A DNA stretch of 38,710 nucleotides from Armatimonadota bacterium (GCA_016235455.1 JACRKZ010000171.1:1-38710); one strand, 5' to 3'. Shown: positions 1 through 17,030, counted from the stretch's first letter. The notes: generated by a model not told the origin, from the letters alone. Numbers and translations: made by a program.

Positions 1-3000
1 GCCGCGCCCAACACGGTGTGGCCCTGCGCACGCAGCAGGCGCGTCGCCAGCCGCAGCACAGCCGGCTCATCCTCGACCACCAGAATGGTGGCGCTACGGC
101 CGGTCGGCGCGTCGGCGCCGGGCTCCGCGCCAGACGCCGCGGCCGGACCATGGTGGCGCGGCAGGTGGATAGTGAAGCAGGCGCCCTGCTGCGGCTCGCT
201 GGCCACACTGATGGTGCCGCCGTTCTGCTGGACGATGCCATAGACCGTGGCCAGGCCCAGGCCGGTGCCCTGGCCCAAGGCCTTGGTGGTGAAGAACGGC
301 TCGAACAGGCGCGCTTGCGTGGCCTGGTCCATGCCACGGCCGGTGTCGCGCACCGTCAGCCGCACGTAGTCGCCGGCCGCCGTTTCGGGATGCGCGGCGA
401 CGTAATCGGCGTCGAGCACGCAGTTGGCCGTGTCGATGTTGATCTGGCCGATGCCGGCAATGGCGTCACGGGCGTTGACGCACAGGTTGGCCAGGATCTG
501 GTCGACCTGCGTCGGGTCCATGCGCACCGGCCACAGGCCCCCGCCCGGCTGCCAGTCCAGGTGGATGTCCTCACCGATGAGCCGCTCCAGCATGCGCAGC
601 ATGCCCTCCACGGTGCGGTTCAGGTCCAAGACCTTGGGGGCCACGGTCTGCTGCCGCGCGAAGGCCAGCAGTTGCTTGGTCAGGTCGGCCGAGCGGCGCG
701 CCGCCTCCTGGATGCTGAGCAGGTCGTCGTGCAGCGGCTGCGACGAGTCGACCTCGTCCATGGCCAACTCGATGTGGCCGAGAATGACCGCGAGCATGTT
801 GTTGAAGTCGTGCGCCACGCCACCGGCCAGGCGGCCAACTGACTCCATCTTCTGCGCCTGGGCCAGTTGCTCGGACAGCGCGCGCTGGGCCTCCTGGGCA
901 TGGTGACGGTCGGTGATGTCCTGGATGGTGCCCGACATGCTGATGGGGTCACCGGCGTCGTCGTAGGTCAGTTGGCCGCGGCCGTAGACCCACCGCACTT
1001 CGCCATCGTTGGCGCGCACGATCTGGTACTCGCGGTCGAACGGCTTGCGCTGCCCCACCACCTCGTCAAGGAAGTGGTGTTGCATCAAGGCCCGGTGGTC
1101 GGGGTGCACCAGTTCCAGCCAGGCCGCCACGGTCCGCGGGTGGTCTGGCCCGAGGCCGAACATCCGGTCGAGCTCGTCCGAACTGCTCCAGACGCCGGCA
1201 ACCACGTCGAGTTTGTAGCTGCCCACATGGGTGGCGCGCTGCGACTCGCGCAGCAGAGCCTCGCTCTCGCGCAGCGCCTCATTGGCGGCGCGTCGTTCGG
1301 AGATGTCGTGGTAGTTGCCCAGGATGCCGCGTATGTCCGGATCGTGCAGGAGGTTGGTCCCCGTGAAAGCGATCCAGCGGTAGCTGCCGTCACGACAGCG
1401 GTAGCGCACCTCGGTGGTGCCCGAGGCGCCCGGCGTGCCGGCCAGTGCGGCGATGAACGCCTGCCCGGCGGGCACATCGTCGGGATGCACGTTGTCGAAC
1501 GCTGGCTGGCCGACCACTTCCTCGGGTTTCCAGCCGAACAGGCGCTCGATGTTGGGGCTCTTGTAGCGGTTGATGCCGTCCTGGTCGATGATGACGAGCA
1601 CATCGCCGATGTTGGCCACCATCTTGTCCTGCCGCGCGCGCTGCGCCCGTAGCGCCTCCTCGGCCAGGCGGCGTTCGGTGATGTCGGCCACCGTGCCTTC
1701 CCAGCACGCCACGTGCCCCTCGGCATCGCGCACCGCCCGCACGTTCTGCGTGACCCAGATGTGCGCGCCGTCGCGCCGTCGCGCCTCGTACTCGAAGCCC
1801 GTCACGGCTCCCTGCGCCTCGAGCCTGCGCCGCAACTCGCCGCGACGACCCGGTTCGACATAAGTCTGGCTGCCGATATCCTGGACCTCGGCCAGCAACT
1901 GCTCTGGCGAATCGTAGCCGAAGATGCGCGCCAGCGCTGGATTGGCGATGAGGATGCGGCCGTCGGGCGTGGTCTGGAAGATGCCCTGGGTGGCGTTCTC
2001 GAAGATCGAGCGGTATCGGTCCTCGGCCGCGGCCAGCGCCGCCTCGGCCCGTCGGCCCTCGGTGACATCGCGAAACGACCAGACTCGGCCGGCCACCCGT
2101 CCATCAAGGCGCATCGGCGCTGAGCGGCGTTCGTAGACCCGGCCGTCGCGGAAGAACAGGGTGTCCGAGTCCTCGGCGTCCGAGCCGTAGAGCGCGCGCA
2201 CCTTGGCCGTGAACGCCTCGGGCTCGACCAGCTGCGCCAGCACGAAGTCGAGCAGCACCTGGTCATCGCCCGCCTCGAGCAAGCCTCGGGGCACGCGCCA
2301 CAGCTCGGCGAACCGTTCGTTGGCGTAGAGCACGCGGCCGTCGTCATCCACGGCCAGGATGCCGTCGGCGGTCGAGGACAGCGTGGCACGCAATTGCGAC
2401 TCGCGCCGGCGGAGCTCCTCCTCGGCGCGGGTGCGTTCGGTGATGTCGAGGAACGAGACCACAACGCGCGACAGATCATTGGCGTTGTCGGCGATGACCG
2501 ACAGCCGGAGGTCGAGCAGCAGTTCCACGCCATGCCCGTTGACGATCGGGATGCGGGCGGCGAAGAAGCGCGCCCCCTGGGCCAGGGCCACCATCTCCTG
2601 CCGGATGACCTCCAGCGAACCGCCGGTGAAGTAGCTGGGCAAGTCGCGGAGCAGTTCGTCGGCGCTGGAGGCGCCCAGCATCTCGACGCTGCGCTGGTTG
2701 ACCGCCAGGACCCGCACGCGGCTGGCCAGGTCCAGCACTTCGTCAGGGCGCTCACAAAGGTACTTGTCGAAGTCGGTCACGCCGAGGCGGCGCAGTTCCT
2801 CGAAGCGCCTGCCGACCGCCGAGAAATCCTCTTCCCAGACAGCCACGGGCGACTCGTCGAACAGGGCTCGGTGGCGCGCCTCACTGGCGCGCAGCGCCTC
2901 CTCGGCCTCGATGCGCTCGGTGATCTCGCGCACCATGCCTTCCATGGAGACCACGCGGCCCTGGTCGTCGCGGAAGAGCTGGATGTTCAGCGACACCCAG

Positions 3001-4040
3001 GCCCGGCTACCATCCTTGCGGCGGGCTTCGCCGACGACATCCACCAGATGGCCGTGCCGGAACAGGTCGCCCAGCATGGCCTGCCGCGCGTCGTGGTCCG
3101 CGTAGAGCGCCGCGGCGGGCAGGCCGACCATCTCGTCGGCCGAGCCGTAGCCGTAGAGCCGCGCCGCTGACGGACTGACCATGGTGATCGTGCCGGTCGC
3201 GTCGGCCTGGACATAGGCATCCTGGAGGTTGTCCAAGATGCCGCGCAGCAACTCCTCGTTCGCGCGCAGGGCCGCGGCGCTGGTGTGGCGCTCAGTGATG
3301 TCGACATCCGTGCCGCGATAGCCGAGCAACTCGCCGTCGGCGCCGAGCATGGGCACGCCGTTGGTCGACACCCAGATGACCTGGCCCTGGCCGGTGACAA
3401 TGGGATTCTCGAAGTCGCAGAACGCTCCGTGCGCGGAGATCACGTCAAAGGCGGCCGCGCGATAGGCGTCGCGCCGCGCCTCGGGATACAGGTCATAGAA
3501 GCAGAGCTTGCCGACCACTTCGTCAATGGCGTAGCCCCAGACCGTCTCGCAGGCCCGGCTCAGGTAGGTGTACCGCCCCTCCGCGTCGACCTCCCAGACG
3601 ACCGTGCGGCTGTGCTCGGCCAACTCGTCAAAGCGCCGCAGCAGCGCGCGCTGGGCCTCTTCGGCGGCCTTGCGTTCGCTGATGTCGCGGATGAAGACCA
3701 CGAAGCGCCCGCCGTCGATGTCGCGGTACTGGATGGCGACCTCAACATCGAACGTGCTGCCGTCTCGGCGGCGATGACGCGACTCGAAGCGATCCTCGCC
3801 AACCACCAACAGCCTCGCCGTGCGGGCCCGCACCGCCTCGGGCGAGTCGATGGCATCGAGGTCACCCACGCTCAACGTCGCCAGTTCGGCCTGGCTGTAG
3901 CCGCTCATGCGGGCGTAGGCTTCGTTGGCCTCCAGGATGCGGCCCTCGGCGTCGACCAGCCAGAAGCCATCCATGGCGCTCTGGATGATGAAGCGGTGCA
4001 AGGCGTCAGGCGCTGACGACGTGCTGGTGCAACCCGCCAC
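1..4040 (-). CDS. Multi-PAS hybrid sensor histidine kinase/response regulator (about 8 PAS/PAC domains, HisKA, HATPase_c, receiver); 3' end runs off the window start
   Basis: Absent from the ORF track because no stop lies in the window; translated by hand. The frame contains repeated PAS ends (RDISERK, DVDITERH, REITERI, LDITERT, RDVTEGR, ADITERR, HDISERR, QDITDRH), the H-box QAQKMESVGRLAGGVAHDFNNML, RLFEPFFTTK..GTGLGLATVYGIV and the receiver start TILVVEDEPAVLRL. GTG at 4040 has GGAG 8 nt upstream; the exact start is uncertain. Confidence 0.93.
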   Translation of the reverse strand, partial: MAGCTSTSSAPDALHRFIIQSAMDGFWLVDAEGRILEANEAYARMSGYSQAELATLSVGDLDAIDSPEAVRARTARLLVVGEDRFESRHRRRDGSTFDVEVAIQYRDIDGGRFVVFIRDISERKAAEEAQRALLRRFDELAEHSRTVVWEVDAEGRYTYLSRACETVWGYAIDEVVGKLCFYDLYPEARRDAYRAAAFDVISAHGAFCDFENPIVTGQGQVIWVSTNGVPMLGADGELLGYRGTDVDITERHTSAAALRANEELLRGILDNLQDAYVQADATGTITMVSPSAARLYGYGSADEMVGLPAAALYADHDARQAMLGDLFRHGHLVDVVGEARRKDGSRAWVSLNIQLFRDDQGRVVSMEGMVREITERIEAEEALRASEARHRALFDESPVAVWEEDFSAVGRRFEELRRLGVTDFDKYLCERPDEVLDLASRVRVLAVNQRSVEMLGASSADELLRDLPSYFTGGSLEVIRQEMVALAQGARFFAARIPIVNGHGVELLLDLRLSVIADNANDLSRVVVSFLDITERTRAEEELRRRESQLRATLSSTADGILAVDDDGRVLYANERFAELWRVPRGLLEAGDDQVLLDFVLAQLVEPEAFTAKVRALYGSDAEDSDTLFFRDGRVYERRSAPMRLDGRVAGRVWSFRDVTEGRRAEAALAAAEDRYRSIFENATQGIFQTTPDGRILIANPALARIFGYDSPEQLLAEVQDIGSQTYVEPGRRGELRRRLEAQGAVTGFEYEARRRDGAHIWVTQNVRAVRDAEGHVACWEGTVADITERRLAEEALRAQRARQDKMVANIGDVLVIIDQDGINRYKSPNIERLFGWKPEEVVGQPAFDNVHPDDVPAGQAFIAALAGTPGASGTTEVRYRCRDGSYRWIAFTGTNLLHDPDIRGILGNYHDISERRAANEALRESEALLRESQRATHVGSYKLDVVAGVWSSSDELDRMFGLGPDHPRTVAAWLELVHPDHRALMQHHFLDEVVGQRKPFDREYQIVRANDGEVRWVYGRGQLTYDDAGDPISMSGTIQDITDRHHAQEAQRALSEQLAQAQKMESVGRLAGGVAHDFNNMLAVILGHIELAMDEVDSSQPLHDDLLSIQEAARRSADLTKQLLAFARQQTVAPKVLDLNRTVEGMLRMLERLIGEDIHLDWQPGGGLWPVRMDPTQVDQILANLCVNARDAIAGIGQINIDTANCVLDADYVAAHPETAAGDYVRLTVRDTGRGMDQATQARLFEPFFTTKALGQGTGLGLATVYGIVQQNGGTISVASEPQQGACFTIHLPRHHGPAAASGAEPGADAPTGRSATILVVEDEPAVLRLATRLLRAQGHTVLGA

Positions 4041-4136
4041 CGGAGTGGCTCCGGCAGGCTGTGATGGCTGGGCATCGCGGGTGGGTATCTCTCGGCTCCG
4101 GTACGCCCGCGCGGGTCGGCGTTCTCGCGTAACGGC

Positions 4137-4165
4137 ACTATGCCAGCCACGCAAGCTTTGGGCAA
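4137..4165 (-). promoter_or_regulatory. Putative sigma70-type promoter for the kinase (TTGCCC-N17-CATAGT)
   Basis: The minus strand reads TTGCCC (4165-4160), 17 nt, CATAGT (4142-4137), about 100 nt upstream of the GTG start. Confidence 0.4.
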
Positions 4166-4188
4166 CAAGCGTATGTAAGCCCAACGTG

Positions 4189-4208
4189 ACCCCGCCGAAG
4201 CCGGGGGC
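4189..4208 (-). terminator. GC-rich cUUCGg hairpin directly after the rep stop codon
   Basis: Minus strand gcccccggcTTCGgcggggt immediately follows the TGA at 4211-4209. There is no strong U-tract. Confidence 0.4.
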
Positions 4209-5405
4209 TCAGCAGCGTTCGGGGTCGATGCTGTGGGTCATGGCGAAGCGGATGACCGTGCGGATGTCGGTCGGCCAGACCGCCGGCCGGCCATTGGCCA
4301 CGGCCGCCGCGAAGCGCTCGGCGAACCGCAGGTAGGCGCGCTGCTCCTCGCTGGTCAGCAGGTTCCACAGCCCCTCGAAGGCCTCGGGCTCGTCGTCCGG
4401 ATAGCGCAGTTCGTAGTTGTTGCGAATGGCCTCGGTGACGTAACCGCCCGGCGTGGAGGGTTTGCGGAACTGCAGGTGATCCAGATGGCGGATGAGATGC
4501 AGCTCGTCGTAGCCCGCGGTCAGGTCGCGGCAGACCGCGGGGAACACCCCGTACTCGCCCAGGATGCGGCGAATCTGCGAGCGCAGGTAGTTGGTGAGCT
4601 GGAAGCGGAACTTGCCGCCGCGCTGGTAATCCCACGAGGTGATCACCCCGGACTCCACCAGCCGCTCGATGTGTGGCTCCACACGCTTGAGGAACTGCGC
4701 TGGTCGCGGGTAGTTCACGCTCATGCCAATGGCCTTGGCCAGCGTCTTCCAGCCGATCTCGTAGTTGGTCTCGCCGTGCAGCACGGCTCGGTCGAGGAAA
4801 CGGTACAGCGCCACGGCGATAGGGTTGTCCAGGTTCAGCGCGAGCTGCCAGTCGAGCCGCTTGAAGTCGCCCAGCTCGATGGCCTGGCGCACCAGCCCAC
4901 CCCACTCCACCGTCACCCAGTCGTTGGTGTCGTCCACCTCAACCCGGTCGATCAGGTGGCTGATGTCCAAGTGACGTCGATACGGCGTACCCGTGCGGCT
5001 GATCAGCTCGGTCTCAAACTTCATGGTCACCCCGGCCAGGCGCTCCAGCGCCTTCTCGAACTGCTCATAGCGCGCGCCGGCATCGGACCAGCGCATCTGC
5101 CGGAAGAGATGGGCACGGCGGAACGTCACGCGCTCCATGTTGCCCTGCTCGTGGCTGACCTGCAACAAGCCGAGGAAAATGACCTGGTCGGTCTGGCTGG
5201 GCAGCTCCAAGTGGGCGCCAGGCCGCATGGTCACCGAAATTCGTTGCGGGCGCCCGGCGACCATGGCCTGGTACTGAATGGTCACGGGCTGGGTGCGGTC
5301 GACCCGGCGATCGGCGAAGGGCAGCAGGGCCATGGTGGCCTGGTCGATGCCCCAGGCGGGATGGCTGTTGATGGGTTCGTCTTCGAACAACGTCGGCTGC
5401 ACCAT
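4209..5405 (-). CDS. repA: Plasmid-type replication initiator protein (RepA/RPA-like, winged-helix), 398 aa
   Basis: The pattern LPSQTDQVIFLGLLQ...VTFRRAHLFRQMRWSDAGARYEQFEKALERLAGVT...HLID...LDWQLALNLDNPIAVALYRFLD...IGWKTLAKAIGM resembles replication initiator protein A families, as does the C-terminal PGGYVTEAIRNNYEL. Iteron-like repeats lie directly upstream and parA is nearby. Confidence 0.85.
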   Translation of the reverse strand: MVQPTLFEDEPINSHPAWGIDQATMALLPFADRRVDRTQPVTIQYQAMVAGRPQRISVTMRPGAHLELPSQTDQVIFLGLLQVSHEQGNMERVTFRRAHLFRQMRWSDAGARYEQFEKALERLAGVTMKFETELISRTGTPYRRHLDISHLIDRVEVDDTNDWVTVEWGGLVRQAIELGDFKRLDWQLALNLDNPIAVALYRFLDRAVLHGETNYEIGWKTLAKAIGMSVNYPRPAQFLKRVEPHIERLVESGVITSWDYQRGGKFRFQLTNYLRSQIRRILGEYGVFPAVCRDLTAGYDELHLIRHLDHLQFRKPSTPGGYVTEAIRNNYELRYPDDEPEAFEGLWNLLTSEEQRAYLRFAERFAAAVANGRPAVWPTDIRTVIRFAMTHSIDPERC

Positions 5406-5489
5406 AGCTTGTTACCCTTCGCTCTTGATCTAACTACAAACTTAAGAGCCGCGGCAACCGCCTGTGGAGCGGGCCGGCGAGCTGCCGAC

Positions 5490-5736
5490 GTAGGCTGTAC
5501 CTACGGATCACCCCACCCCAATGTAGGCTGTAGCTACGGATCGGCGCTGAGGGCACGTAGGCTGTACCTGCGGAGCATAGCACGAAAGTCGGCCTCTGAA
5601 GCGGGTTGGGGCCGGTAGGCTGTAGCTACGGAGGCTTTCGCCGATCCGACGGTACGGCCTACTTCACGGGGGGTGTGGCGCGAAATAGTCGGGTCGGTCC
5701 GTAGGTACAGCCTACATTTCCGATCGCACGGCCTAC
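5490..5736. repeat. Iteron array / putative oriV: 18-bp GTAGGCTGTASCTRCGGA, four direct and three inverted copies
   Basis: Direct copies at 5490-5507, 5523-5540, 5557-5574 and 5615-5632. Inverted copies at 5645-5662 (15/18), 5698-5715 (18/18 to copy 1) and 5719-5736 (13/18). The first spacings are 33 and 34 bp. A locally AT-rich tract lies at about 5405-5446. Confidence 0.85.
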
Positions 5737-5906
5737 GTTGGCGACTCGCTGGCCGGGGATGGCGGCGTGAGCGGCGCTGGTCGGCGTCCAGCGCCCAGAG
5801 CCGGGCGCCAAGCCTTGTTGCGGGGTGGTTACGGATCACAGCGCGGCGGTGGCCTGGTGAGTCGGCCGGGTTGCGTTGGGCCTCGGCCGACTCGGTCCAG
5901 AGGCTA

Positions 5907-6356
5907 TCAGCGGGGTTCGCCGTCGGCCATTTCCTCGAGCAGCATCTGCACCGCCAGCATGCCGAAGTCCTGCGAGGAGAGGCCGCGCAACATGCACTGC
6001 TGAGCGATGACGTGGCGCAGCCACTTGGGCACGCGGATGGTGTATTGGCAGATGGACTCATCATCAGGAACCTGCATGCCATAGGCCTCTTTGAGCTCAG
6101 GGAGGCTCATGGCCCGGACTCGCTGCGTGGCCGGCCGCTCCGACTCGGCTTCAGGCGGCGCGACGGGGGCCGGTTTGGTCCGCCGAGTAGCCGACCGAGG
6201 CTCCGGCGCCGACTCGGCCGGCGGCGCTGGCGCTGGCTCAGGAGTGGGCTGCGGCTCGACCTCGGCGCTGGCGGCGGGCTTGACGACCAGGTCGGCCTGG
6301 CCGGCGGCGGCGAGCTGCAGGTTGCGGACGAGGTCACGCGTCGACTTGGCGGCCAT
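5907..6356 (-). CDS. ParG-like ribbon-helix-helix centromere-binding protein (type Ib partition partner), 149 aa
   Basis: A Pro/Ala/Glu-rich, probably disordered N-terminus is followed by YTIRVP-KWLRHVIAQQCMLRG-LS-SQDFGMLAVQMLL, a strand-helix-helix RHH pattern. The start overlaps the parA 3' end and has a GGAG RBS. Confidence 0.7.
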   Translation of the reverse strand: MAAKSTRDLVRNLQLAAAGQADLVVKPAASAEVEPQPTPEPAPAPPAESAPEPRSATRRTKPAPVAPPEAESERPATQRVRAMSLPELKEAYGMQVPDDESICQYTIRVPKWLRHVIAQQCMLRGLSSQDFGMLAVQMLLEEMADGEPR

Positions 6357-6948
6357 TGAGTGTCTCCAGGATTTCGTCGGTCAGGGTGCAGATGTCAGAC
6401 CAGGCGTTGTCGGCGCTGGGATAGGGGTAGTCGCACACGGCGCGCTCGTCCCACTGGGCCCGCTGGTAGCAGCGGTAGGCGCGCACGCTGGTGGTCAGGC
6501 AGGCGATGCCCGCGTCGCTCAACGCCTGGGCGCTGGTCTGGCCTTCGCGGCTGGTGGGCGGGAAGGCGTTGAGCAGCACGCGCACCAGCGGATTGATGGG
6601 CGCCAGGTGGGCGTAGAGGTCGATGGCGGCGCGCTGGCTCTCGCGGTCGGGCTGAGCGACGATGACGATCATATCGACGAGCTCGGCCAGGGTGCGGCGC
6701 ATGTCGGGCCCCGGGTGCGCCGGCGTGTCCCAGACGCGGACAGCGTGACTGGGCAGGCCGTCGGACAGCACCTCATAGGTATAGGCGGGCACGTACCCGG
6801 TCTCCCCCACCCAGGCGGTGGAGGCCGAGCGGCCGTCCAGGTCGATGAGACAGATGTCGGCGCCGACCTGACGCAGGCGTGTGGCGACGTGGTAAGCGAG
6901 CGTGGTCTTGCCGACCCCACCCTTGTCTGCGGCGAACGCGATGTCCAC
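6334..6948 (-). CDS. parA: ParA/ParF-family Walker-type partition ATPase, short form without N-terminal HTH, about 204 aa
   Basis: Deviant Walker A KGGVGKTT, A' IDLDGRSAS and Walker B VWDTP. GTG start at 6948 follows GGAGG; the longer track ORF to 7275 is an unlikely extension. Confidence 0.9.
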   Translation of the reverse strand: MDIAFAADKGGVGKTTLAYHVATRLRQVGADICLIDLDGRSASTAWVGETGYVPAYTYEVLSDGLPSHAVRVWDTPAHPGPDMRRTLAELVDMIVIVAQPDRESQRAAIDLYAHLAPINPLVRVLLNAFPPTSREGQTSAQALSDAGIACLTTSVRAYRCYQRAQWDERAVCDYPYPSADNAWSDICTLTDEILETLNGRQVDA

Positions 6949-7027
6949 GCGGTGGTACCTCCCAGCAATCTGACAGTGTGGCCCAGCGGCGGTTGCGCGG
7001 TCGCCATGACGCCGTGTGCCAGCGTGT

Positions 7028-7036
7028 AGTTTAGCA
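7028..7036 (-). promoter_or_regulatory. Extended -10 element (TGcTAAACT) for the parA-RHH operon
   Basis: The minus strand reads TG-c-TAAACT about 80 nt upstream of the parA start, in an otherwise very GC-rich tract. Confidence 0.5.
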
Positions 7037-7164
7037 TGCGGGCGGCCGGGGTGCGGTGGCGGCGGAGGGGCGCAAGGGGGCGCAGGCGGCGGGCGGCGGG
7101 GCGATGACGTGGGGCGGGGAGCGCGGCGCCGGACGGGAGAGGTGGCCGGCGGGATACGATGGCC

Positions 7165-7240
7165 GCACAAGGGCATGTCCGCATGTCCGCACGTGGACAT
7201 GGGTGCAGGCGTGGGGACATGTCCGCATGGGGACATGTCG
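7165..7240. repeat. 8-bp-periodic RCATG-type repeat array; putative centromere (parS) or operator for the RHH protein
   Basis: gcacaagg gcatgtcc gcatgtcc gcacgtgg acatgggt gcaggcgt gggg acatgtcc gcatgggg acatgtcg, located upstream of parA. Confidence 0.6.
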
Positions 7241-8026
7241 ACCTCTGGAGGGAACCGGCCCAAGCCAATCGCCACGCGTAAGCCTATGGTACGCCAGAGC
7301 GGGGCAGGACGGGAAGCGCGAACTCACCGCGTGGGAGTCGCACGACAGCCCGAGAAGAGCGGGGCAGACGAGGGTGAGCTCATCCGCTCGAGTTGGGCGA
7401 GGTGCCGCGGCGGCAGCGGCCGCGATCTTGACCAGCCGCTCAGCCTCGACCACTGTCGCGATCCGCCAGCGCCGCGGACCGGCGGTGGTCGACCTGCCTT
7501 GGCCTGGCGCCGAGGAGGACCAGGCGTAGCGCCACTGCGCGAGGCCTGAGAGCAGAGAGCCGAGCCAGCATCGCAGGGGCAAGCTGCAGCCTGGCAACGG
7601 CGAGACACCCGAGCGGGCGCAGCGCATGGGTCGCCTCGCATGCGTACCGCGAGCCGAGGCGTCATGGGCCGCCTGGGGCTACCGCTACGCCGAACCGGAG
7701 GGCATCCCGAGCACGCCGAACGGCCCCGCAGCTGCGAAACAGCACGGCCTTCGCCGGACCGGCATGCTGTAGCATCGGCGGGAGGCGAAGCCGGCGGCCG
7801 ACCGGGAAGCGATGCGGTTGGGAACGTCGGGCGTTCGACCCGATGCAACGCGGGAGGGCGGTGGTCGGCCACTGGCAACACCCGCTTCGTGCGATGCCAT
7901 CACCGCGGAGTGGGCGATGGACTCACCCACGGAGTCGCCCCCAGGTGAAGGGCGCACCCGAGCAAGGCGCTGCAACTAGTGCTGCCGGGCCGCGCGAGTG
8001 GGCGCCGTGCGTCAGACCGCATCGGT

Positions 8027-8055
8027 GAATGCCGTTCCGTTCCCGAACGGCGTTC
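8027..8055. repeat. Palindrome GAATGCCGTTC-N7-GAACGGCGTTC (copy 1)
   Basis: 11-bp arms with one mismatch and a 7-bp spacer; a second related copy is at 8360-8388. Confidence 0.55.
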
Positions 8056-8359
8056 GCACTGGCCGAACAACTGGCGGTCGCCGGAACCGCGGCCGCTCCC
8101 GTGACGGACCGCCATCCTGACGGAGGACGGACCCTTATGGCTAGCCCCAGGCGCGCCAGGATGGCTGCAAGCCGCCGACCGCTGCTTGGCCAGGGGTACC
8201 ACCGGTTTGAACGCGGGTGAGGCAAGAAGAGACGGCGATCAAGCATTCATGGCCGGCTGAGCAACTGCCTGACTGCAGCATGCGTGCAGCGAGGGCCTCC
8301 GGCGCCCTATCCTCGTGTTCGGGCGCGATGGCCCGCGCAGCGCGGATGGCGGCACTCCT

Positions 8360-8388
8360 GAACGCCATTCGCAGGCCGAACGGCGTTC
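8360..8388. repeat. Palindrome GAACGCCATTC-N7-GAACGGCGTTC (copy 2)
   Basis: Same right arm and spacer length as copy 1, extendable to ctg...cag. It ends about 70 bp upstream of the fucosidase start. Confidence 0.55.
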
Positions 8389-8456
8389 AGCGGCCCGCCG
8401 ACGGGGAGGAGCCACGGCGAGCAGGGCCAAGTCAGGCGCGACCGAGGAAGGCGACG

Positions 8457-9563
8457 ATGCCCGCACCCAGCTATCTGCGCGATCACGAAACGCTGTACGC
8501 CACCGACCCGCGCGCCGCGGCGCGCGCCTGGTTCGGCGAGGCCCGCTACGGCCTGTTCCTGCACTACGGGCTCTACAGCTTGCTGCGTCGCGGCGAGTGG
8601 GTGCAGTTCAAGGAGCGCATCCCGGTGGCCGAATACGCCCGGCTGCAGGCCGACTTCCAGGCCGAGTCGTTCGACGCCGAGGCCATCTGCCGACTGGCGA
8701 TCGAGGCGGAGATGCGCTACGTCACGTTGACCACGCGGCACCACGACAGCTTCTGCCTGTTCCGCACCGCGCAGACGGAGTTCAACAGCGTCAACGCGCC
8801 GTGCGGCCGCGACCTGGTCGGCGAGTTGGCCGAGGCCTGCCGCGCGCACGGGCTGGGGCTGTTCCTCTATTACAGCTACGCCTGCGACTGGAAGCACCCC
8901 TGGTTCTACCCGCGCGAGGCGGGCTGCACGTTTGCGCGGCCGGCCTATGAGCAGCCGCAGCCCGAGTACCTGTGGCGCGAGGACGCCGACATGGGCCGCT
9001 ACATTGCCTTCGTCCATGCGCAGCTCGAGGAACTGCTGACGCAATACGGGCCGGTGGCGGGCGTCTGGTTCGACCCGATCATGGCCTACTACGCGCGGCC
9101 TGACCTGTTTCCCATCGCGGAGACCTATGCGCTCATCCGGCGGCTCCAGCCCCAAGCGCTGGTCGCCTTCAAGCAGGGCGCCAACGGCGATGAGGACTTC
9201 GCCTCGCCCGAGCACTTTGCCGCCTCGCTGGCCGATCGCGTGGCGGCGAATGGCGGGTCGGAACAGGCCGTGGCGGCGGCGCGCGCGGCCTGGGCGGCGA
9301 ATGCCGTCAAGCCCAACGAGACGTGCACCACCATGCACCCAGCCTGGGGCTGCCAGGACTGCGCCGACAGCGAGCACAAGACGCTCGACCAGGTCTGGGC
9401 CGACCTGGCATCCGCCGCCGGTCAGGGCTGGAATCTGCTGCTCAACACCGGGCCGCTCCCCGATGGCAGCATTCATCCGCTGGACGCGGCGACGCTGAGG
9501 CGGGTGGGGCAGCGCATCCGCGCCGAGGGCTGGCCCGGGCCAGAGCCCACCGTCGCCAGCTAG
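8457..9563 (+). CDS. Alpha-L-fucosidase (GH29), 368 aa, no evident signal peptide
   Basis: WFGEARYGLFLHYGLYS, TTRHHDSFCLF, GLGLFLYYS, nucleophile motif GVWFD and NLLLNTGPLPDGSI. ATG 8457 follows GAGGAAGG. Confidence 0.92.
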   Translation: MPAPSYLRDHETLYATDPRAAARAWFGEARYGLFLHYGLYSLLRRGEWVQFKERIPVAEYARLQADFQAESFDAEAICRLAIEAEMRYVTLTTRHHDSFCLFRTAQTEFNSVNAPCGRDLVGELAEACRAHGLGLFLYYSYACDWKHPWFYPREAGCTFARPAYEQPQPEYLWREDADMGRYIAFVHAQLEELLTQYGPVAGVWFDPIMAYYARPDLFPIAETYALIRRLQPQALVAFKQGANGDEDFASPEHFAASLADRVAANGGSEQAVAAARAAWAANAVKPNETCTTMHPAWGCQDCADSEHKTLDQVWADLASAAGQGWNLLLNTGPLPDGSIHPLDAATLRRVGQRIRAEGWPGPEPTVAS

Positions 9564-9746
9564 CCGCCGCGGTCGACGATCGTTGACGGCCGCTACACGC
9601 CTTCACCCCCCAATGCCATGGCATGGCCCCATGGCGTGCGCCATCGCCTGTGCCCACAACAGCAGCAGGGGCCACCGGCGGCAACCGTGCTCGGCGGCCG
9701 GCTCCTGCTGTTGGCCCGCGCACGAGTGCGGCCCAGGGAGTTTGCT

Positions 9747-10634
9747 ATGAGAACAGTCTGTTCGCGCGCGTCGCTGGTTGCCGTGGCCTTGCTGGTGGGC
9801 GCCGTGGCGCTAACCGGCTGCAATTCGAGCAACGGCTCGGCCACCGGCACGACGGGCCGGGTGCAGGTCTCGCTGACCGACCAGTCCGGTACCTACAGCG
9901 CGGTCGTGCTCAGCATCAAGAAGGTGCTGGTCGTACCCGATGGCATGGAGAGCGCCGACACCACGCCCGCCTTCCATACCGTGGCCAACTTCACGCCCTC
10001 GCGCGTGGTCGACGTCCTGGACCTGGCCTACCAGCAGCAGTTGCTGGGCGAAGCCACCATGCCCGCTGGTGAGTACCATCAGGTGCGACTGGTGCTGGAC
10101 ACCAACCCCGCCAGCGGCGCGCCGCTCAACTACGTCATGCTGCCCGGCGATACCGCTCATTACGCGCTCGACACGCCCAGCGGCCATATGTCGGGCCTGA
10201 AAGTCACGGGCGACTTCACCGTGATGGCCGGGTACTTGGTGGCCATGGTCTTGGACTTCAATCCCCAGAAGGCGATCATCCATGCCGGCGCCAGCGGCAA
10301 GTACATCCTGAAGCCCACCGGCATCCGCATGTGCGAGCAGGCGGGCCTCCTGGCTCACTACGGCAGCCTGAGCGGCACCGTCCTGCCGAGCGCGGCATGG
10401 TCGACCGCCGTGGTGCGTGTCGTGCCCGTGGGTAGCTCCTCGGCTGTGGTCAGCGGCGCTGTCGACCCGGAGGATGGCAGCTACAGAGCCCTTGTGCCGG
10501 CCGGTAGCTACAACATCCTGGTGGACGCCACGGGCTTCGCGGCCTTCGACTCGCGCACTCTCGGGGCCGAAGGGACTCACACGGTCATGCTCGGCCAGGA
10601 GCACGCGGTGGAGGGCATCCTGCTCACGCGTTGA
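9747..10634 (+). CDS. DUF4382-domain lipoprotein with C-terminal carboxypeptidase-regulatory-like beta domain, 295 aa
   Basis: Lipobox ALTGC; motifs GRVQVSLTD, MPAGEYHQVRLVL, LDTPSGHMSGLK, VLDFNPQKAI and GKYILKP; C-terminal DGSY..LVPAGSYNI. ATG 9747 follows GGGAG. Confidence 0.8.
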   Translation: MRTVCSRASLVAVALLVGAVALTGCNSSNGSATGTTGRVQVSLTDQSGTYSAVVLSIKKVLVVPDGMESADTTPAFHTVANFTPSRVVDVLDLAYQQQLLGEATMPAGEYHQVRLVLDTNPASGAPLNYVMLPGDTAHYALDTPSGHMSGLKVTGDFTVMAGYLVAMVLDFNPQKAIIHAGASGKYILKPTGIRMCEQAGLLAHYGSLSGTVLPSAAWSTAVVRVVPVGSSSAVVSGAVDPEDGSYRALVPAGSYNILVDATGFAAFDSRTLGAEGTHTVMLGQEHAVEGILLTR

Positions 10635-10721
10635 CCGCGCGGCTAGCGGTCCCAGCCAGACGTGTCGGCGTCCCCGTTCCCCCGCGGAGCGAGGACGCCG
10701 GCGGTTTGGGCCTGGCCGGCA

Positions 10722-10750
10722 TTGACGCACCGGCGCAGCGTGCCGACAAT
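10722..10750 (+). promoter_or_regulatory. Sigma70-type promoter TTGACG-N17-GACAAT
   Basis: Near-consensus hexamers with 17-bp spacing, ending 37 nt upstream of ATG 10788. Confidence 0.55.
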
Positions 10751-10787
10751 GGTGCCACGAGCGGGGCTGCTCTCGAAAGGCACATCA

Positions 10788-13337
10788 ATGCTGCATACCA
10801 CGGGCCGTCGCCTGTTGTGCGCGGTCGGGTTGGCGCTGGTTGCGCTGGCGCCGCGGCCGACGCTGGCGAGTTACTACGACCTGATCCCCTCGTCCACCAC
10901 GCCGCTCGAAGCCGTGACCTACGACGCGCGCTACCCATACTGGACGCAGCAGATCTACATCGCGACCTACCCGCACCACGCCTGGTCGCGCGAGGGTTGG
11001 ACCAGCGAGTACTACGGCGGCGTGCAACTCAACTCCGCGGCCAAGAGCACCTTCCTGCTCTGGTCTACCTGGCAGGTACGCGGCAAGGACGCGCCGGCCA
11101 GCGGCATCGACTTCGTCCACGCCGGCCCGCGGCTGGGTTGGCGGCGGTCGACCTGGGAGGGTTCGTCCGGCGGCGTATCGGGCTCGTGGCCACCTGACGA
11201 GTTCCGCACCAACCAGTGGTACCGCTTCGTCCACCGCACCTGGCGGCCGATCGGCGATCTGGCCCACCTGGGGTATGCCGGCGTGTGGATGAAGGCGCTG
11301 GAGACCGGCCAGTGGTACCACATGGCCACCTTCAAGTTCCCCGCCGAGTTGACCGGCTTCAACAACATGTTCGGCTTCATGGAATGGTTCGGGCCGAACG
11401 CGCCCGACCGGGCCGCGGCCGAGTTCCGCAATGTCTACAGCTTGACCGACGGCAAGTGGACCTCGCGCACGGCCTTTTCCGCGCGCAACGCCGGCGGCAA
11501 CGCCGTCACGCTGACGTCGGGCGAGGGTGGGGTGGGCGTGCTCATGGAGACGGTGTCCAACCCCATCGACCCGGCGACCGGCAAGCGTCCCACGGTGCCC
11601 GTGGTGCGGCAGGAGCTCACGCTACGCCAGCCCGAGCAGCCGGAGTTCTTCGACCAGGCCAAGGTCGGCACGCTGGCCGCTGAGTGGCTGGGCCGGCAAC
11701 TCGTCGCGCGCTGGACGGTCGACACCAAGTCCTCACCGCAGCTCGGTTACGACCTCGAGGTGTATGACGGCGAACGCCGCCTGCTGGCCACGCGCGCCAA
11801 CGAGCCCGAGGCCCGCGAGTGCACCGCGTTGCTGCCGGAGCTGCCCCGCGCCGCGGTCAGCGTGCGCCTGCGCCTGCGCGACATCCTCGGCCAGACCTCA
11901 CCCGAGGCGCGCTGCGTGGCCGCGGCGGCGAAGCCCCTGGCCGCCGCCGCGACCGCTCGCCTGGCGCCGAGGCTGGCTTACCGATACTACGAGTCGCCTC
12001 AAGGCGAGACCTGGTCGAACCTGCCCGACTTCGCGGCGCGCCGGCCGGTGCGTAGCGGCATCACAGCCACGCCCGACATCACCCCGCGCCTGCGCCGCAA
12101 TGGCTATGCGCTGGCCTTCGACGGCTACCTGCGCGTGCCGGCCGACGGGCTGTACACCTTCGCGCTGACCGTGGCCAGCGGCGCGCGGCTGACGCTCGAC
12201 GGCCGCACCGTGGTCGACGCCGACGGCGACCGCTCCATCGCGGCTTACCCCGGCACGGTGGCGCTGCGGGCCGGGCTCCATGCGCTGGCGCTGAGCTTCT
12301 ACCACGGTCGTGGCCGACCCAACCAGGCGGACGACTACCTGCAACTGAGCTGGGCTGGCCCCGGCTTCGACCTGACGCCCGTGCCGGCTTCGGCGTTCTC
12401 ACACGCAGTGGCCGCGGGTGAGCAGACGCTGACAGCCGCCGCGCGGCCGCTCGACGCCGTGCGGATCACGTTGTCGAGCCGCTTGGCTGGAGGCGGGCCG
12501 CGGCCCAAGCGCACCGAGTACTACGCGGTCAACGACCAGTTCGACTACTTTGCTATGCAGGGCGGCCGTTCGGCGGGCTACTTCCTGGCCGCCACCGACC
12601 AGCCCGACCAGGCCGTGATCGTACCGATCTGGGGCGGGCGCCAGAGGACCGTGTTCGCCCGCGCGGTGCTCGACGACGGCCGCACCGTGGACAGCGCGCC
12701 GGTGGAGGTGACTGCCCTGGCAGCGCCGCCCGCGCTCGATGCCAACGGCATGCGGCTGACCGCGCTGGAGCATCATCTGTACCCCATGGCCAGTGGGGTC
12801 GACAATGGCACGGTCACCCTGGTGGGTGAGTCGATGGGCTTGTTGACCCGGCCGCACCGGGGCGACGTGACGATCACCGCGCATCTCACCGGCATCACCT
12901 CGAACCAGCCGCTGGCCGACGGCACGACGCTGGACAGCCCCGGCAACTGGTACTCGGGCCTCATCCTGCGCAACAGCGCCGCGCCCCGGCCGGGCGAGCC
13001 GTTGGGCGGCGCGGAAATCCCCTACATCGCCCTGTTCGGCTCGGCTGACGGCGCCACGCGGCGCTGCGACAGCACGATGATCAACGGTGCGGGCAATCAG
13101 CCCTCGGGCGACATCGGGCGCGATGCCAAGTGGTTCCGACTGACTCGCCAGGGCCAGGACCTGGCGGCTTACCTCTCTCGCGACGGCCAGACCTGGAGCA
13201 AGGTCGCCGGCATCACTCAGCCCAAGCTGGGCGAGGAGATCGAGGTCGGCTTCGTACACTATGCGCTGCCCTGCGCCACGCCGGTGGTGCACTGGGCCAG
13301 CTTCGACCATGTGCAGGCGCTGGATCGCGTGGAGTGA
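10788..13337 (+). CDS. Secreted multidomain protein: DUF3472-like N-domain, PA14 domain, C-terminal ConA/LamG-like beta-sandwich, 849 aa
   Basis: Signal peptide MLHTTGRRLLCAVGLALVALAPRPTLA. DUF3472-like YYGGVQLN..FLLWSTW..EGSSGG..WYRF..GFMEWF. PA14-like YALAFDGYLRVPADGLYTF..LRAGLHAL..LQLSWAGP. C-terminal WFRLTRQG..YLSRDGQTW. Confidence 0.7.
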   Translation: MLHTTGRRLLCAVGLALVALAPRPTLASYYDLIPSSTTPLEAVTYDARYPYWTQQIYIATYPHHAWSREGWTSEYYGGVQLNSAAKSTFLLWSTWQVRGKDAPASGIDFVHAGPRLGWRRSTWEGSSGGVSGSWPPDEFRTNQWYRFVHRTWRPIGDLAHLGYAGVWMKALETGQWYHMATFKFPAELTGFNNMFGFMEWFGPNAPDRAAAEFRNVYSLTDGKWTSRTAFSARNAGGNAVTLTSGEGGVGVLMETVSNPIDPATGKRPTVPVVRQELTLRQPEQPEFFDQAKVGTLAAEWLGRQLVARWTVDTKSSPQLGYDLEVYDGERRLLATRANEPEARECTALLPELPRAAVSVRLRLRDILGQTSPEARCVAAAAKPLAAAATARLAPRLAYRYYESPQGETWSNLPDFAARRPVRSGITATPDITPRLRRNGYALAFDGYLRVPADGLYTFALTVASGARLTLDGRTVVDADGDRSIAAYPGTVALRAGLHALALSFYHGRGRPNQADDYLQLSWAGPGFDLTPVPASAFSHAVAAGEQTLTAAARPLDAVRITLSSRLAGGGPRPKRTEYYAVNDQFDYFAMQGGRSAGYFLAATDQPDQAVIVPIWGGRQRTVFARAVLDDGRTVDSAPVEVTALAAPPALDANGMRLTALEHHLYPMASGVDNGTVTLVGESMGLLTRPHRGDVTITAHLTGITSNQPLADGTTLDSPGNWYSGLILRNSAAPRPGEPLGGAEIPYIALFGSADGATRRCDSTMINGAGNQPSGDIGRDAKWFRLTRQGQDLAAYLSRDGQTWSKVAGITQPKLGEEIEVGFVHYALPCATPVVHWASFDHVQALDRVE

Positions 13338-13394
13338 GTCCGCCGATCGTTCTCAGCCGGGACAACCAACGCCTGCCGGCCTGACCGACGGGGC

Positions 13395-14177
13395 CTACCC
13401 GTCGTCGCTGAGGCTCAGCCCGCGGTCGGCGTGCTGCGGGTCGTCGGGTCGCGACAACCCGCGCTCCATGCGGGCTTGCAGCGCCTCGTCCTGCTCGGCG
13501 CGGGCAGCGATGATCGCCTTGGCGACGCGCACCAACGGGGCGCTTCCGGGGCCCGCCAGGGCGAGCCAGCGGCCGTCCCGGAGATGAAGCACCGGCCGGC
13601 TGATCATCTCGTCGAGCCGCATCACATCGGCCCATCGCACGCACTCGACAGAGTGGGGCCCCTCGATCGTGAGGAATTCAGGGTCGGCCGTGACCGCGTG
13701 GTTCAGGCGTCGGCGTGCGGCGCGGACCGCGACCAGCCGCTGCTGCCAACGAGCGAGCCCTCGCCGCCAGGAGCCCTCCAGCGACAGGCTGGCCAGCAAT
13801 GCGCCAGACACGATCAGTGTCGCGCCCGGACCCTCAAAGACCCGGTCCCCATCGACCGTGGCATACATCAGCGCCACGCCGATCACCGCCATCGCGATGC
13901 CGCACAGCAGCCACCAGGCCGGGTGCGGCGGCAGGACGCGCGTTGCACGGACCACAGGCACCCGCGCGTCCACCTCATCCTCCCGCTCACCATGGCTGCT
14001 GAGCCGACCGGCGCAGCGGTCGAACCCACGCAGCCATTGGGCAATCCGCGCGGTAGCCGGCAGCCAGTCGTCGTCGAGTGCGGGCTCCCCTGGTTGTCCC
14101 TGACGCCCCTCATCCATGCCCGCCGATTCGGCTCGCGTCGGCAGTCTCCTCGCGGGGCTGGTCGTGTTCGCTGCCAC
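13395..14177 (-). CDS. Hypothetical membrane protein with two TM segments; alternative start ATG 14117
   Basis: Two hydrophobic stretches (WWLLCGIAMAVIGVALMY and ATLIVSGALLASL). It fills the gap between neighbouring genes on the same strand as the upstream gene. Confidence 0.55.
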   Translation of the reverse strand: MAANTTSPARRLPTRAESAGMDEGRQGQPGEPALDDDWLPATARIAQWLRGFDRCAGRLSSHGEREDEVDARVPVVRATRVLPPHPAWWLLCGIAMAVIGVALMYATVDGDRVFEGPGATLIVSGALLASLSLEGSWRRGLARWQQRLVAVRAARRRLNHAVTADPEFLTIEGPHSVECVRWADVMRLDEMISRPVLHLRDGRWLALAGPGSAPLVRVAKAIIAARAEQDEALQARMERGLSRPDDPQHADRGLSLSDDG

Positions 14178-14218
14178 GCTTTGAGCCGACCTGACTGAGA
14201 ACCCCGCGGCGCTCGGCG

Positions 14219-14665
14219 TCAGCCCCGCTCCGCCAGGCGCGCCTCGATGCGCTCCAGCCGCGCGACGATATCCGGGATGAGCCGGGCCAGGTCGTGCATC
14301 TCGGCGCGCGTCACCCGGGCCTCGGCCAGTTCGGTGACCTGTGTGACCTGGTTGGCCTTGACCAGCTCAAACTCCTTGGTGATGGTCTCGTGGTCCTCCT
14401 CGGCGCGCTTCTCCGAGGCGCGGTTGAGCACAATCCCACCAACCATCAGCAGCGGCAACGCCCATAGCTGGATCCAGGCGCTGGAGATCAGCAGGATGGT
14501 CTCTTTCCAGTGGGCCAACTGCGGTACAAACGCCAGCAAGCCCCACACGAAGAAGACGTAGAACGCCCACATCGAACCGAAGACCACCGTGCCCCGGGCC
14601 GCGACCTTCTCGTTGAACTCATTGATGCGAGCCAGCAGCGGGCTCGGCGCCGATTCCGTGGCCAT
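14219..14665 (-). CDS. DUF1003-like small membrane protein, 148 aa
   Basis: FNEKVA..GTVVFGSMWAFYVF..ISSAWIQLWALPLLMVG..RAEEDH followed by a coiled-coil tail. ATG 14665 follows GGGAG. Confidence 0.7.
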   Translation of the reverse strand: MATESAPSPLLARINEFNEKVAARGTVVFGSMWAFYVFFVWGLLAFVPQLAHWKETILLISSAWIQLWALPLLMVGGIVLNRASEKRAEEDHETITKEFELVKANQVTQVTELAEARVTRAEMHDLARLIPDIVARLERIEARLAERG

Positions 14666-14841
14666 GGCATATCTCCCGCGCGCACCTTCCACCTGCCTTG
14701 CGCTATCCCTGCCCGACGGCCGAACCTCGCCGTTTTGGTAATCCTGTGCGCAAGTGTGGAACTCTCGGCTCTTGTAGTCCCAAACCCCTTGAAACGGCCG
14801 GCGCTGGCGTGACAATGGCCCTCGGGTAGCGCGAGAGCGAT

Positions 14842-16128: not shown

Positions 16129-16137
16129 GGAGGTGGC

Positions 16138-17025
16138 GTGGTGGCCATAGAGGGACTGAAGCTGATCGGCGAGCGGATCAACCCGGGCTTCCGCAGCTCC
16201 AAGGAGCTGCTGGACGCCAAGGATCTGCCGGGCCTGCAGGCGCTGGCCGTGGACCAGGTGCGCAAGGGCGGTTGCGCCTATCTGACCGTGAACGTCGGCG
16301 AGGCGGGCACGCGCGACCCGCAGTTTCTCGTGGATCTGATCCGCGCCATCCAGGCGGTGGTCGACCTGCCCTTGGCGTTCGACTACCCGGCGCGCGAGGT
16401 GCAGGAGCTGTGCCTGGACACGTATGACGCGGGCCGGGCGCAGGGCCGCTGGCCAATCATGAACAGCGTCACCGAGCTGCGTTGGGACATGCTCGACATC
16501 CGCGACCGCCAGCCGTTCAAGGTTGTGCTCATGGCCAGCGAGCGGCTGGAAGGCACCCGCGGCGTGCCCAACCGCACGGCCGCCGAGGTGCATCAGACCG
16601 CGCGCCGCATGGTGGAGCGCTTGCTGGGCGGCGACTATGGGCTGACCGCGGACGACCTGTTCATCGACGTCTCGCTCGGACCGATCTCGGCCGACCTGGA
16701 GGGGCTTACGCGGCAGGCGGTGGACAGCATTGCGCTGCTCGGCGCCGACCCCGACCTGGCCGGCACGCACAAGATGGTCGGGCTCTCCAATCTCAGCATC
16801 AGCACGCCGCCGCGCGCGCTGGACGGCGGGTTGCTCAAGGTGCGCCTGGAGTCGGCTTTCCTCACACTGACCGTGCCGCACGGGCTGGACTACATCCTGG
16901 GCACCCCGGGCCGCGACTACCAGGTGCTGCCCGACGACGACTACGTGATGATCGGCTTCCGCGAGGCCATCGCGCTGGACGGGTTCGACACGCTGATGCG
17001 CGTGCAAGCGCTGTACACGGAGTAA
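16138..17025 (+). CDS. Pterin-binding methyltransferase (methyl-THF:corrinoid methyltransferase, AcsE / MetH pterin-domain-like), about 295 aa
   Basis: LIGERIN, YLTVNVG, PLAFD, IMNSV, LFID and VGLSNLS motifs. GGAGG RBS, 9 bp after metF. Confidence 0.85.
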   Translation: MVAIEGLKLIGERINPGFRSSKELLDAKDLPGLQALAVDQVRKGGCAYLTVNVGEAGTRDPQFLVDLIRAIQAVVDLPLAFDYPAREVQELCLDTYDAGRAQGRWPIMNSVTELRWDMLDIRDRQPFKVVLMASERLEGTRGVPNRTAAEVHQTARRMVERLLGGDYGLTADDLFIDVSLGPISADLEGLTRQAVDSIALLGADPDLAGTHKMVGLSNLSISTPPRALDGGLLKVRLESAFLTLTVPHGLDYILGTPGRDYQVLPDDDYVMIGFREAIALDGFDTLMRVQALYTE

Positions 17026-17030
17026 CCACC

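Follow-up and report, generated by a model that had tools for sequence, protein, structure and literature searches.

Is the compact replication and partition module found in a draft genome of the phylum Armatimonadota the origin of a plasmid, or does it reside in the chromosome? The question is raised by a cassette of 3.1 kb on contig C134 of assembly GCA_016235455.1 (JACRKZ010000171.1). This contig of 38,710 bp (GC 0.697) was analyzed over its whole length and is called the window in the following; coordinates are counted from its first base. A sequence-only reading of the same DNA had named Armatimonadota as the probable source, and the genome indeed belongs to a Fimbriimonadaceae-type lineage of this phylum. 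The draft comprises 6.52 Mb in 185 contigs and is 93% complete with a GC of 0.693.

The cassette is encoded on the minus strand and consists, in order of transcription, of GGACATGTCC-type palindromes, parA, a gene for a ribbon–helix–helix (RHH) protein, a 500-bp spacer with iterons and the initiator gene rep, which is followed by a gene for a PAS kinase. The sequence-only reading had listed a RepA-like gene, an array of 18-bp repeats, an RHH gene, a short parA and a second repeat array within about 3 kb, and all of them are present. The rep, RHH, and parA genes are intact, and their GC at third codon positions (0.82–0.89) is typical of the host. We lean, by a modest degree of belief, to the view that the cassette is the functional theta-type iteron origin together with the type Ib-like partition system of a plasmid or megaplasmid that is kept at low copy number and measures at least 38.7 kb. 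The cargo of this replicon would most probably be host-like accessory genes, and its host a Fimbriimonadaceae-type member of the Armatimonadota.

The replication initiator and its iterons

The rep gene (4209–5405, minus strand) codes for a protein of 398 aa which scores above the Pfam cut-offs of RPA (PF10134; 29.6 bits, cut-off 27) and Rep3_N (PF01051; 26.3 bits, cut-off 22.4) and narrowly under that of TrfA (20.8 bits, cut-off 22). NCBIfam gave no match to Rep, and the Rep profile matched no PDB sequence. The fold was modeled with AlphaFold from an alignment of 19 sequences (mean predicted local distance difference test score, pLDDT, 80.4). With this model, Foldseek retrieved domains 2–3 of RctB (4e-8), Pi (8e-4), followed by RepE and chains related to it (to 3e-3). 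VIA-align, which is independent of Foldseek, gave Z scores of 13.4 for RctB (233 residues aligned) and 13.0 for Pi, followed by the first winged-helix domain (WH1) of MSBI1.176 (9.4), RepE (9.3) and the WH1 domain of pPS10 RepA (9.1); unrelated helical proteins reached at most 6.7 and aligned to Rep residues 272–332 only. Because the initiators match strongly and the unrelated folds just over this short stretch, residues ~21–275 are, according to the model, the WH1-WH2 core to which a helical C-terminal domain (~271–398) has been added. The sequence-only reading had been made dependent beforehand on a Rep-like fold, and this fold was found in the matches to RctB, Pi, RepE, and RepA at Z 9–13. 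We conclude that Rep is an iteron initiator with a tandem winged-helix fold.

Other Armatimonadota genomes contain matches to the C-terminal domain alone (encoded at 4209–4595 of the window; profile positions ~277–391), and short proteins of 115–181 aa match it too. It may be a separable module. A fold search with this domain returned generic helical matches only (Z at most 6.7).

The spacer upstream of rep carries four 18-bp iterons on the plus strand (5490–5507, 5523–5540, 5557–5574, and 5615–5632). These are the occurrences of GTAGGCTGTACCTACGGA with at most one mismatch, and their starts (5490, 5523, 5557, and 5615) are 33, 34, and 58 bp apart. Three further copies in the inverted orientation, that is, on the minus strand, are found at 5645–5662 (three mismatches), 5698–5715 (exact), and 5719–5736 (degenerate). 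When up to three mismatches are allowed, the window holds seven sites against none in 100 dinucleotide shuffles; the whole genome of 6.5 Mb holds 13. Between the iterons and the start of rep lie the most AT-rich 40-mers of the window (5401–5447; AT 0.60–0.62, in a window with a GC of 0.70). With a length of only about 45 bp, this patch coincides in part with the expected rep promoter. We regard it, on composition and conservation, as a candidate DNA-unwinding element and/or rep promoter. The promoter and terminator scans returned no promoter-like site.

A metagenome contig (L041) which codes for a Rep with 93% identity allows the spacer to be compared position by position. The iteron columns are identical at 101 of 108 positions (93.5%) and the rest of the spacer at 258 of 394 (65.5%), and the AT-rich patch is likewise conserved. 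Therefore the repeats and the AT-rich patch stand out as conserved islands within a diverging spacer, and on this alignment the iterons are under purifying selection.

We also compared the regions upstream of rep at 16 Rep loci with 50 shuffles each. At eight loci the repeats exceeded all shuffles, at four they were reached by one or two of the 50, and the remaining four were indistinguishable from shuffled sequence. The 33/34/58-bp spacing recurs upstream of the Rep homolog of L021, and in L005 (on contig C2 of the same genome) and L020 a spacing of 33 bp is followed by one of 92 or 90 bp. The repeat sequences vary from locus to locus while the spacing is held in common, and inverted copies lie farther upstream. 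Differing repeats with a shared spacing are the pattern that co-evolving pairs of Rep and iteron would give.

The gene on contig C2 (G000:C2:6280–7860) is a second Rep paralog in the source genome. It is 41% identical to Rep, has no adjacent par genes, and is accompanied by five to six copies of a different, GGTGTACA-type repeat with a 33-bp spacing. Its neighbors are genes for a GH39 protein, a chemoreceptor, a phosphotriesterase, and a fucosidase.

Single iteron copies also occur away from the origin. One is an orphan in the window (19634–19651, minus strand, one mismatch), which lies within coding sequence at a distance of 14 kb from the origin and whose flanking CAATG matches too. The others lie at C130:10144, 10228, and 11595, at C75:7940, and at C67:36290. 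Their flanks resemble each other, with (A/T)TG upstream and mostly A and C past the CGG core. The three exact copies on C130 bracket a multihaem cytochrome gene which adjoins a PAP2 gene; the other off-origin copies are intragenic. Over their last 591 nt, C130 and C182 are mutually reverse-complementary. These two contigs probably join, and the iteron on C182 is then probably the same site as C130:11595. The off-origin iterons might titrate Rep, take part in regulation, or mark parts of the same replicon.

We suggest that initiation proceeds along the following steps, which draw on family knowledge; what we observe is the integrity of the genes, the folds, and the architecture of the repeats, together with their conservation and co-variation. 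Rep monomers would bind to the four 18-bp iterons, which are three helical turns apart. Bound Rep could then bend the DNA and melt the AT-rich patch at 5401–5447, and would recruit the host helicase and replisome. The inverted-orientation iterons farther upstream could serve autorepression and/or handcuffing and in this way limit the copy number.

The partition genes and the putative centromere

The parA gene (6334–6948, minus strand; Pfam CbiA, AAA_31, and MipZ) codes for a small Walker-type partition ATPase. The sequence-only reading was right about the gene and had taken its end from the long open reading frame (ORF). The start is GTG 6948, which stands behind a GGGAGG Shine–Dalgarno sequence and gives a protein of 204 aa; the five homologs examined all begin at the equivalent MD[IL]. 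ParA has the deviant Walker A motif KGGVGKT at residues 9–15 and is without an N-terminal DNA-binding (helix–turn–helix) domain. It matches the NCBIfam model ParA_partition from end to end (2–202 of 203) with 62.6 bits, which is under the equivalog cut-off of 180 bits. The closest plasmid ParA proteins, from Thermus, Nostoc, Synechocystis, and Deinococcus, are 31–32% identical.

The RHH gene (5907–6356, minus strand) overlaps the stop of parA by 23 nt. Its product of 149 aa, which we predict to be a ParG-like centromere-binding repressor, has no Pfam family match. The N-terminus of this product is a basic helix in which Arg7 is invariant; a linker rich in Pro and Ala then leads to a C-terminal (I/V)RVP strand–helix–helix (helices at 111–145). 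The same architecture is seen in the small genes downstream of five parA homologs. The alignment was built from these neighbors, as the homolog search with the C-terminus returned near-identical proteins only (five of five). In the structural model, the C-terminal residues 101–140 have a pLDDT of 84–94 and the linker is disordered. The top Foldseek rows are ribbon–helix–helix proteins (among them Arc, CopG, omega, and ParG 1p94), every one with E > 1, as is to be expected of a domain of 45 residues; the fit to ParG 1p94 has an rmsd of 0.8 over 41 columns. A complex prediction of two ParA with residues 1–40 of the RHH protein scored 0.28 against a mark of 0.32 and counts neither for nor against an interaction.

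Palindromic GGACATGTCC-type half-sites are clustered at 7171–7242, 219–294 nt upstream of parA. Four copies of the 10-mer with at most one mismatch exist in the window, three of them inside 70 bp. The parA homologs of L025, L024, L026, and L042 also have palindromes or repeats upstream, each different. We infer that the RHH protein binds to the palindromes at 7171–7242, which would make the cluster a candidate centromere and operator. Taken together, parA, the RHH gene, and the upstream repeats fit a type Ib-like partition cassette. The sequence-only reading had seen here a complete module of iteron-type Rep and type Ib-like partition, and families, folds, and repeats agree with it.

Given the 23-nt overlap, parA and the RHH gene would form a translationally coupled operon. 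RHH dimers on the palindromes upstream of parA could both repress the operon and build the partition complex. The basic N-terminal helix with Arg7 would then stimulate nucleoid-bound ParA-ATP so that the copies of the replicon move apart.

About 0.9 kb of unusually long noncoding DNA for this contig (7276–8216) lies upstream of the par-site repeats. It holds no ORF supported by codon bias, no Pfam match (the two long ORFs were scanned), and no Rfam match. Between 6.0 and 8.0 kb the AT skew of the window is high (~0.22), and the GC skew amounts to 0.13–0.15.

Separate replicon or chromosomal location

The three genes recur together elsewhere; the sequence-only reading had proposed to look for the module in other Armatimonadota genomes. 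The order parA–RHH–rep is found in the metagenome loci L042 (Rep 59% and ParA 43% identical) and L049 (Rep 39%, ParA 51%, RHH detectable), and in a degenerate form in G002:C43. Rep alone is more widespread. Of 41 relatives, 13 have a homolog, and a profile search finds one in 55 of 401 Armatimonadota genomes. The tight clade around Rep numbers 18 proteins in a word-indexed search, and among 1.84 billion cluster representatives there are 16 clusters at E ≤ 1e-30, 190 at ≤ 1e-10 and 669 at ≤ 1e-3.

By analogy, support for a separate replicon also comes from better assembled genomes. In three assemblies in which the chromosome is essentially one contig, a Rep homolog is never found on the chromosome contig. 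The two-contig Armatimonadota assembly G073 consists of a 3.48-Mb contig with dnaA and a 72-kb contig with Rep. In G260, which has dnaA on a contig of 6.15 Mb, Rep adjoins ParA-ParB on a 326-kb contig; in G115 the Rep-bearing contigs measure 20 and 100 kb. G027, the one single-contig genome searched, gave no Rep match.

The 72-kb contig G073:C2 (L038, L029, L039, and L040) looks like an uncharacterized plasmid. It codes for an RPA Rep and carries about nine 20-bp TTCCCCAACAAGGCGTGTTT iterons in both orientations, TTATCC-type sites resembling DnaA boxes, a long AT-rich tract, and one ParA gene about 27 kb from rep. Nearly all of the cargo serves exopolysaccharide synthesis and export. No conjugation or integrase genes were seen in the ORFs scanned, and no terminal overlap was found.

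In the source genome, the check proposed by the sequence-only reading places dnaA on C71 and the chromosomal parAB on C167, neither of them on C134. The module is flanked by genes for a PAS histidine kinase, a fucosidase, MTHFR-like and pterin-binding proteins, alginate lyases, a GH127 protein, and a DUF1559 protein. The flanks had been described as host-like in GC and free of integrase, relaxase, and type IV secretion genes; this holds (GC 0.697 vs 0.693), and the Pfam scan of the window found no integrase, transposase, relaxase, or type IV secretion family. The multi-PAS histidine kinase (3–4184, minus strand; assigned by Pfam) is a neighbor outside the core module. It has the same orientation as rep, begins 25 bp past the rep stop, and runs off the contig after 1394 aa. 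In L049, too, the gene directly after rep codes for a multi-PAS protein (2791–4440), which aligns colinearly with the kinase over 399 columns at 35% identity. The linkage of rep with a PAS sensor may be ancient or may serve a function. ARAGORN reported a tRNA-Ser(GCT) at 28338–28414, within a 1799-aa GH127-type ORF. This hit is negative in Rfam at the gathering score and probably false, and Rfam found no family, hence no tRNA, anywhere in the window.

Several observations weigh against a separate replicon. C134 has no overlap with any other contig end, although a 141-nt overlap was found elsewhere (between the left end of C2 and C156), so that the contig can be neither linked nor closed in the draft. 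In tetranucleotide composition C134 ranks 44th of 156 by distance to the genome centroid and is closer to it than 76% of 63 size-matched contigs; a composition indistinguishable from that of the genome fits a chromosomal location too. The GC skew, which had been proposed as a check, was computed and proved uninformative: no switch occurs at the module, genome-wide the skew is weak (~0.02 in either direction), and the arm to the left of the module measures only 4.2 kb. No DnaA box (TTATCCACA with at most one mismatch) lies at the origin, and the single occurrence in the window (11284) compares with a chance expectation of 1.36. Rep and ParA are on separate contigs in three of the four same-family relatives which carry both, and the ParA gene of G005 has a pyruvate dehydrogenase cluster at a distance of 2.6 kb. 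Between genera of the family Rep is only about 40% identical whereas the DNA of the MTHFR cluster, which flanks the module in the window, is 74–78% identical; as far as these comparisons go, this suggests horizontally exchanged modules and not one old replicon. The near-closed assemblies named above carry distant Rep homologs which share the winged-helix core only (in G073, profile positions 16–265). Finally, in G051 Rep homologs lie inside contigs of 1.62 Mb (C1, 102718–103782) and 1.01 Mb (C3, 694038–695147) with ordinary genes around them. Of the sequence-only claim that this is the origin of a secondary replicon, the complete module stands; that the replicon is separate does not follow from a window which is one unlinked 38.7-kb contig of 185.

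The main rival is accordingly that a plasmid-derived rep/par cassette has integrated into the main chromosome, either as a whole plasmid or as a domesticated remnant. The origin would then be silent or fire only after excision, and any constraint on the sequence would be due to a regulatory role of Rep and the RHH protein as DNA-binding proteins. We consider this unlikely, but it has to be taken seriously. The host-like composition of C134 speaks for it, and so do 38.7 kb of ordinary CAZyme (carbohydrate-active enzyme), signaling, and metabolic genes with no conjugation or mobilization gene among them. It would further account for the Rep homologs inside the megabase-size contigs of G051, for the unlinked rep and parA genes in most same-family relatives with one ParA beside core genes, and for the C2 paralog, which has its own repeats, no par genes, and similar gene surroundings. 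The scattered iterons on other contigs, some of them intragenic, could be the sites of a regulator.

Also in favor of this rival, related Rep genes stand beside an integrase or defense islands in L021, L045, and G002:C43. In L021, a metagenome-assembled genome (MAG) labeled Burkholderiales, a related Rep stands beside a tyrosine recombinase, Vsr, and HATPase_c_3 with Z1, and in L045 beside a DarT/macro pair, type I restriction–modification genes, and Shedu. G002:C43 (L022) has two Rep genes 7 kb apart together with an MmeI-type methylase, SNF2, and an N6/N4 methylase. A related Rep of L050 has an SNF2 helicase and DUF1156 as its neighbors.

Against integration it has to be held that the parts for replication and partition are all intact and conserved together, and that an active plasmid origin within a chromosome is usually selected against. 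The borders of the module show no integrase, no att-like repeat, and no tRNA; in particular, no direct 11-mer is shared between 3201–4260 and 7241–8400. The essentially one-contig chromosomes of the three assemblies mentioned carry no Rep homolog. Empty sites were looked for as well. Among the joints listed for contigs of four runs which would skip the module, the sides are at most 41 and no credible empty-site variant is seen. The few listed joints with a side above 30 fall in the repeated kinase domain and therefore stem from repeats or other organisms. Three groundwater runs of one study, possibly including the source sample, yielded contigs that span kinase–rep (800–5904) and parA–fucosidase (6263–20000) in the same arrangement; these are assembled contigs, not reads. 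The five same-family genomes have no clear co-located orthologs of the flanking fucosidase and kinase, and therefore an empty-site comparison with them is not possible.

The sequence-only reading had gone further and called the replicon a candidate chromid, that is, a large secondary replicon with core genes which is vertically inherited in the family. Such a replicon would combine plasmid-type rep and par genes with chromosome-like composition, as is seen here. The Rep family is present in four of the five other same-family genomes, the ParA homolog of G005 is the one beside the pyruvate dehydrogenase cluster, and Rep adjoins AddAB-like genes in G004 and L048. The two contigs of G051 also point in this direction. 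Both carry Rep, neither carries dnaA (which is on C8), and each has a local minimum of cumulative GC skew about 30 kb on the low-coordinate side of rep (C3, ~664 vs 694 kb; C1, ~70 vs 103 kb). The minima are, however, of the same size as other fluctuations and lie off the repeats; they could be due to chance or hint at megabase-size secondary replicons. Moreover, C134 has no unique core gene. Its sole housekeeping-like gene is an MTHFR paralog with 95 bits, against 315 bits for the better-scoring copy on C121, so the label of a chromid is not earned. The identity of only about 40% between the Rep proteins of different genera and the same-genus genome G001 (80% complete), in which neither Rep nor ParA is matched, also argue against this reading. 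A true chromid is thus in our view highly improbable.

A broader conjecture, which we put forward as a long shot, is that the Fimbriimonadaceae and other Armatimonadota with large genomes are multipartite, with RPA-type Rep-iteron origins driving large, host-like secondary replicons, C134 included, and with Rep binding also to the scattered iterons. If this is true, Rep on the scattered iterons would lead to an RctB-like cross-talk between replicons or to Rep-dependent gene regulation.

Plasmids are frequently mis-binned, and C134 could be a contig from the plasmid of another organism; a Rep with 44% identity does occur in a MAG labeled Burkholderiales. GC (0.697 vs 0.693) and tetranucleotide rank are nevertheless those of the genome, and the MTHFR cluster is 74–78% identical to same-family genomes. 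C134 codes for a DUF1559/N_methyl protein, of a kind that is also found beside the Rep homolog on the Armatimonadota contig G051:C3, and the depth is even across C134 in the contigs from the three groundwater runs. We give mis-binning hardly any credence and retain as our preferred reading the origin of a low-copy plasmid or megaplasmid of the Armatimonadota.

Relation to known replicons

A literature search, which did not extend to the supplementary tables of PMC9671151, found no characterized plasmid, chromid, origin, or genetic system from Armatimonadota; the "chromid-like" and putative plasmid contigs in those tables may include replicons of the phylum. The sequence-only reading knew of no characterized secondary replicon in this lineage, and this search agrees with it; Rep-bearing contigs of plasmid size are already contained in public assemblies. 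Armatimonadota therefore has such replicons, though none has been studied.

The mechanism we propose is a textbook one and the surprise for plasmid biology is moderate. The practical value of the cassette is that of a vector backbone and of an entry point to genome architecture in a phylum that lacks genetics. Its 3.1 kb hold all the parts for a stable low-copy vector and could be the starting point for an Armatimonadota shuttle vector. The cassette also offers a direct test whether the 6–9-Mb genomes of the phylum are multipartite.

Among the 72,556 records of PLSDB 13 match Rep, at 22–25% identity and none of them from Armatimonadota. The closest plasmid Reps, annotated as "Replication initiator protein A" or TrfA, are from Isosphaeraceae and other Planctomycetes, Rubrobacter, and Allomeiothermus. 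The 13 plasmids have sizes of 34–348 kb, and 12 of them are predicted to be non-mobilizable. Nearer by host is G073:C2. It resembles the window in having an RPA-family Rep after iterons, a ParA and host-like cargo only, and differs in its distant Rep, the DnaA-box-like sites, the long AT-rich tract, and the position of ParA about 27 kb away.

The best structural match to Rep is RctB of Vibrio cholerae chromosome 2 (domains 2–3; PDB 5ubf and 5tbf). The identity is only 9–10%, Rep is much shorter, and the match is limited to the crystallized RctB fragment 155–483; it reflects the shared winged-helix fold, not membership in the RctB family. RctB has dispersed binding sites, and the off-origin iterons recall them.

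For partition, the systems to compare are ParF/ParG of TP228 and delta/omega of pSM19035, in which, as in the window, a ParA of about 200 aa with a deviant Walker A motif is followed by a small RHH protein whose N-terminal part is disordered, and repeats lie upstream. The cassette departs from type Ib in that its RHH protein belongs to no Pfam family, its ParA stays under the equivalog cut-off, and its repeat motif is lineage-specific.

The initiators Pi of R6K, RepE of F, RepA of pPS10, and TrfA of RK2 have the WH1-WH2 fold in common with Rep, and the array of direct repeats, the inverted copies, and the AT-rich patch before rep are likewise found in classical iteron plasmids. The structure-based identity to these initiators is just 8–12%. 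Iterons of classical plasmids are spaced by about 22 bp; the origin described here differs in its spacing of 33–34 bp, in having no DnaA box, in its background of ~70% GC, and in its host-like cargo, and Rep differs in its extra conserved helical C-terminal domain (~271–398). The small clade, the conserved geometry of the origin, and this extra domain therefore mark a distinct branch of the iteron-initiator family. In its mechanism the module looks classical: an origin like those of the plasmids pPS10, F, R6K, or RK2, combined with a ParF/ParG-like partition cassette.

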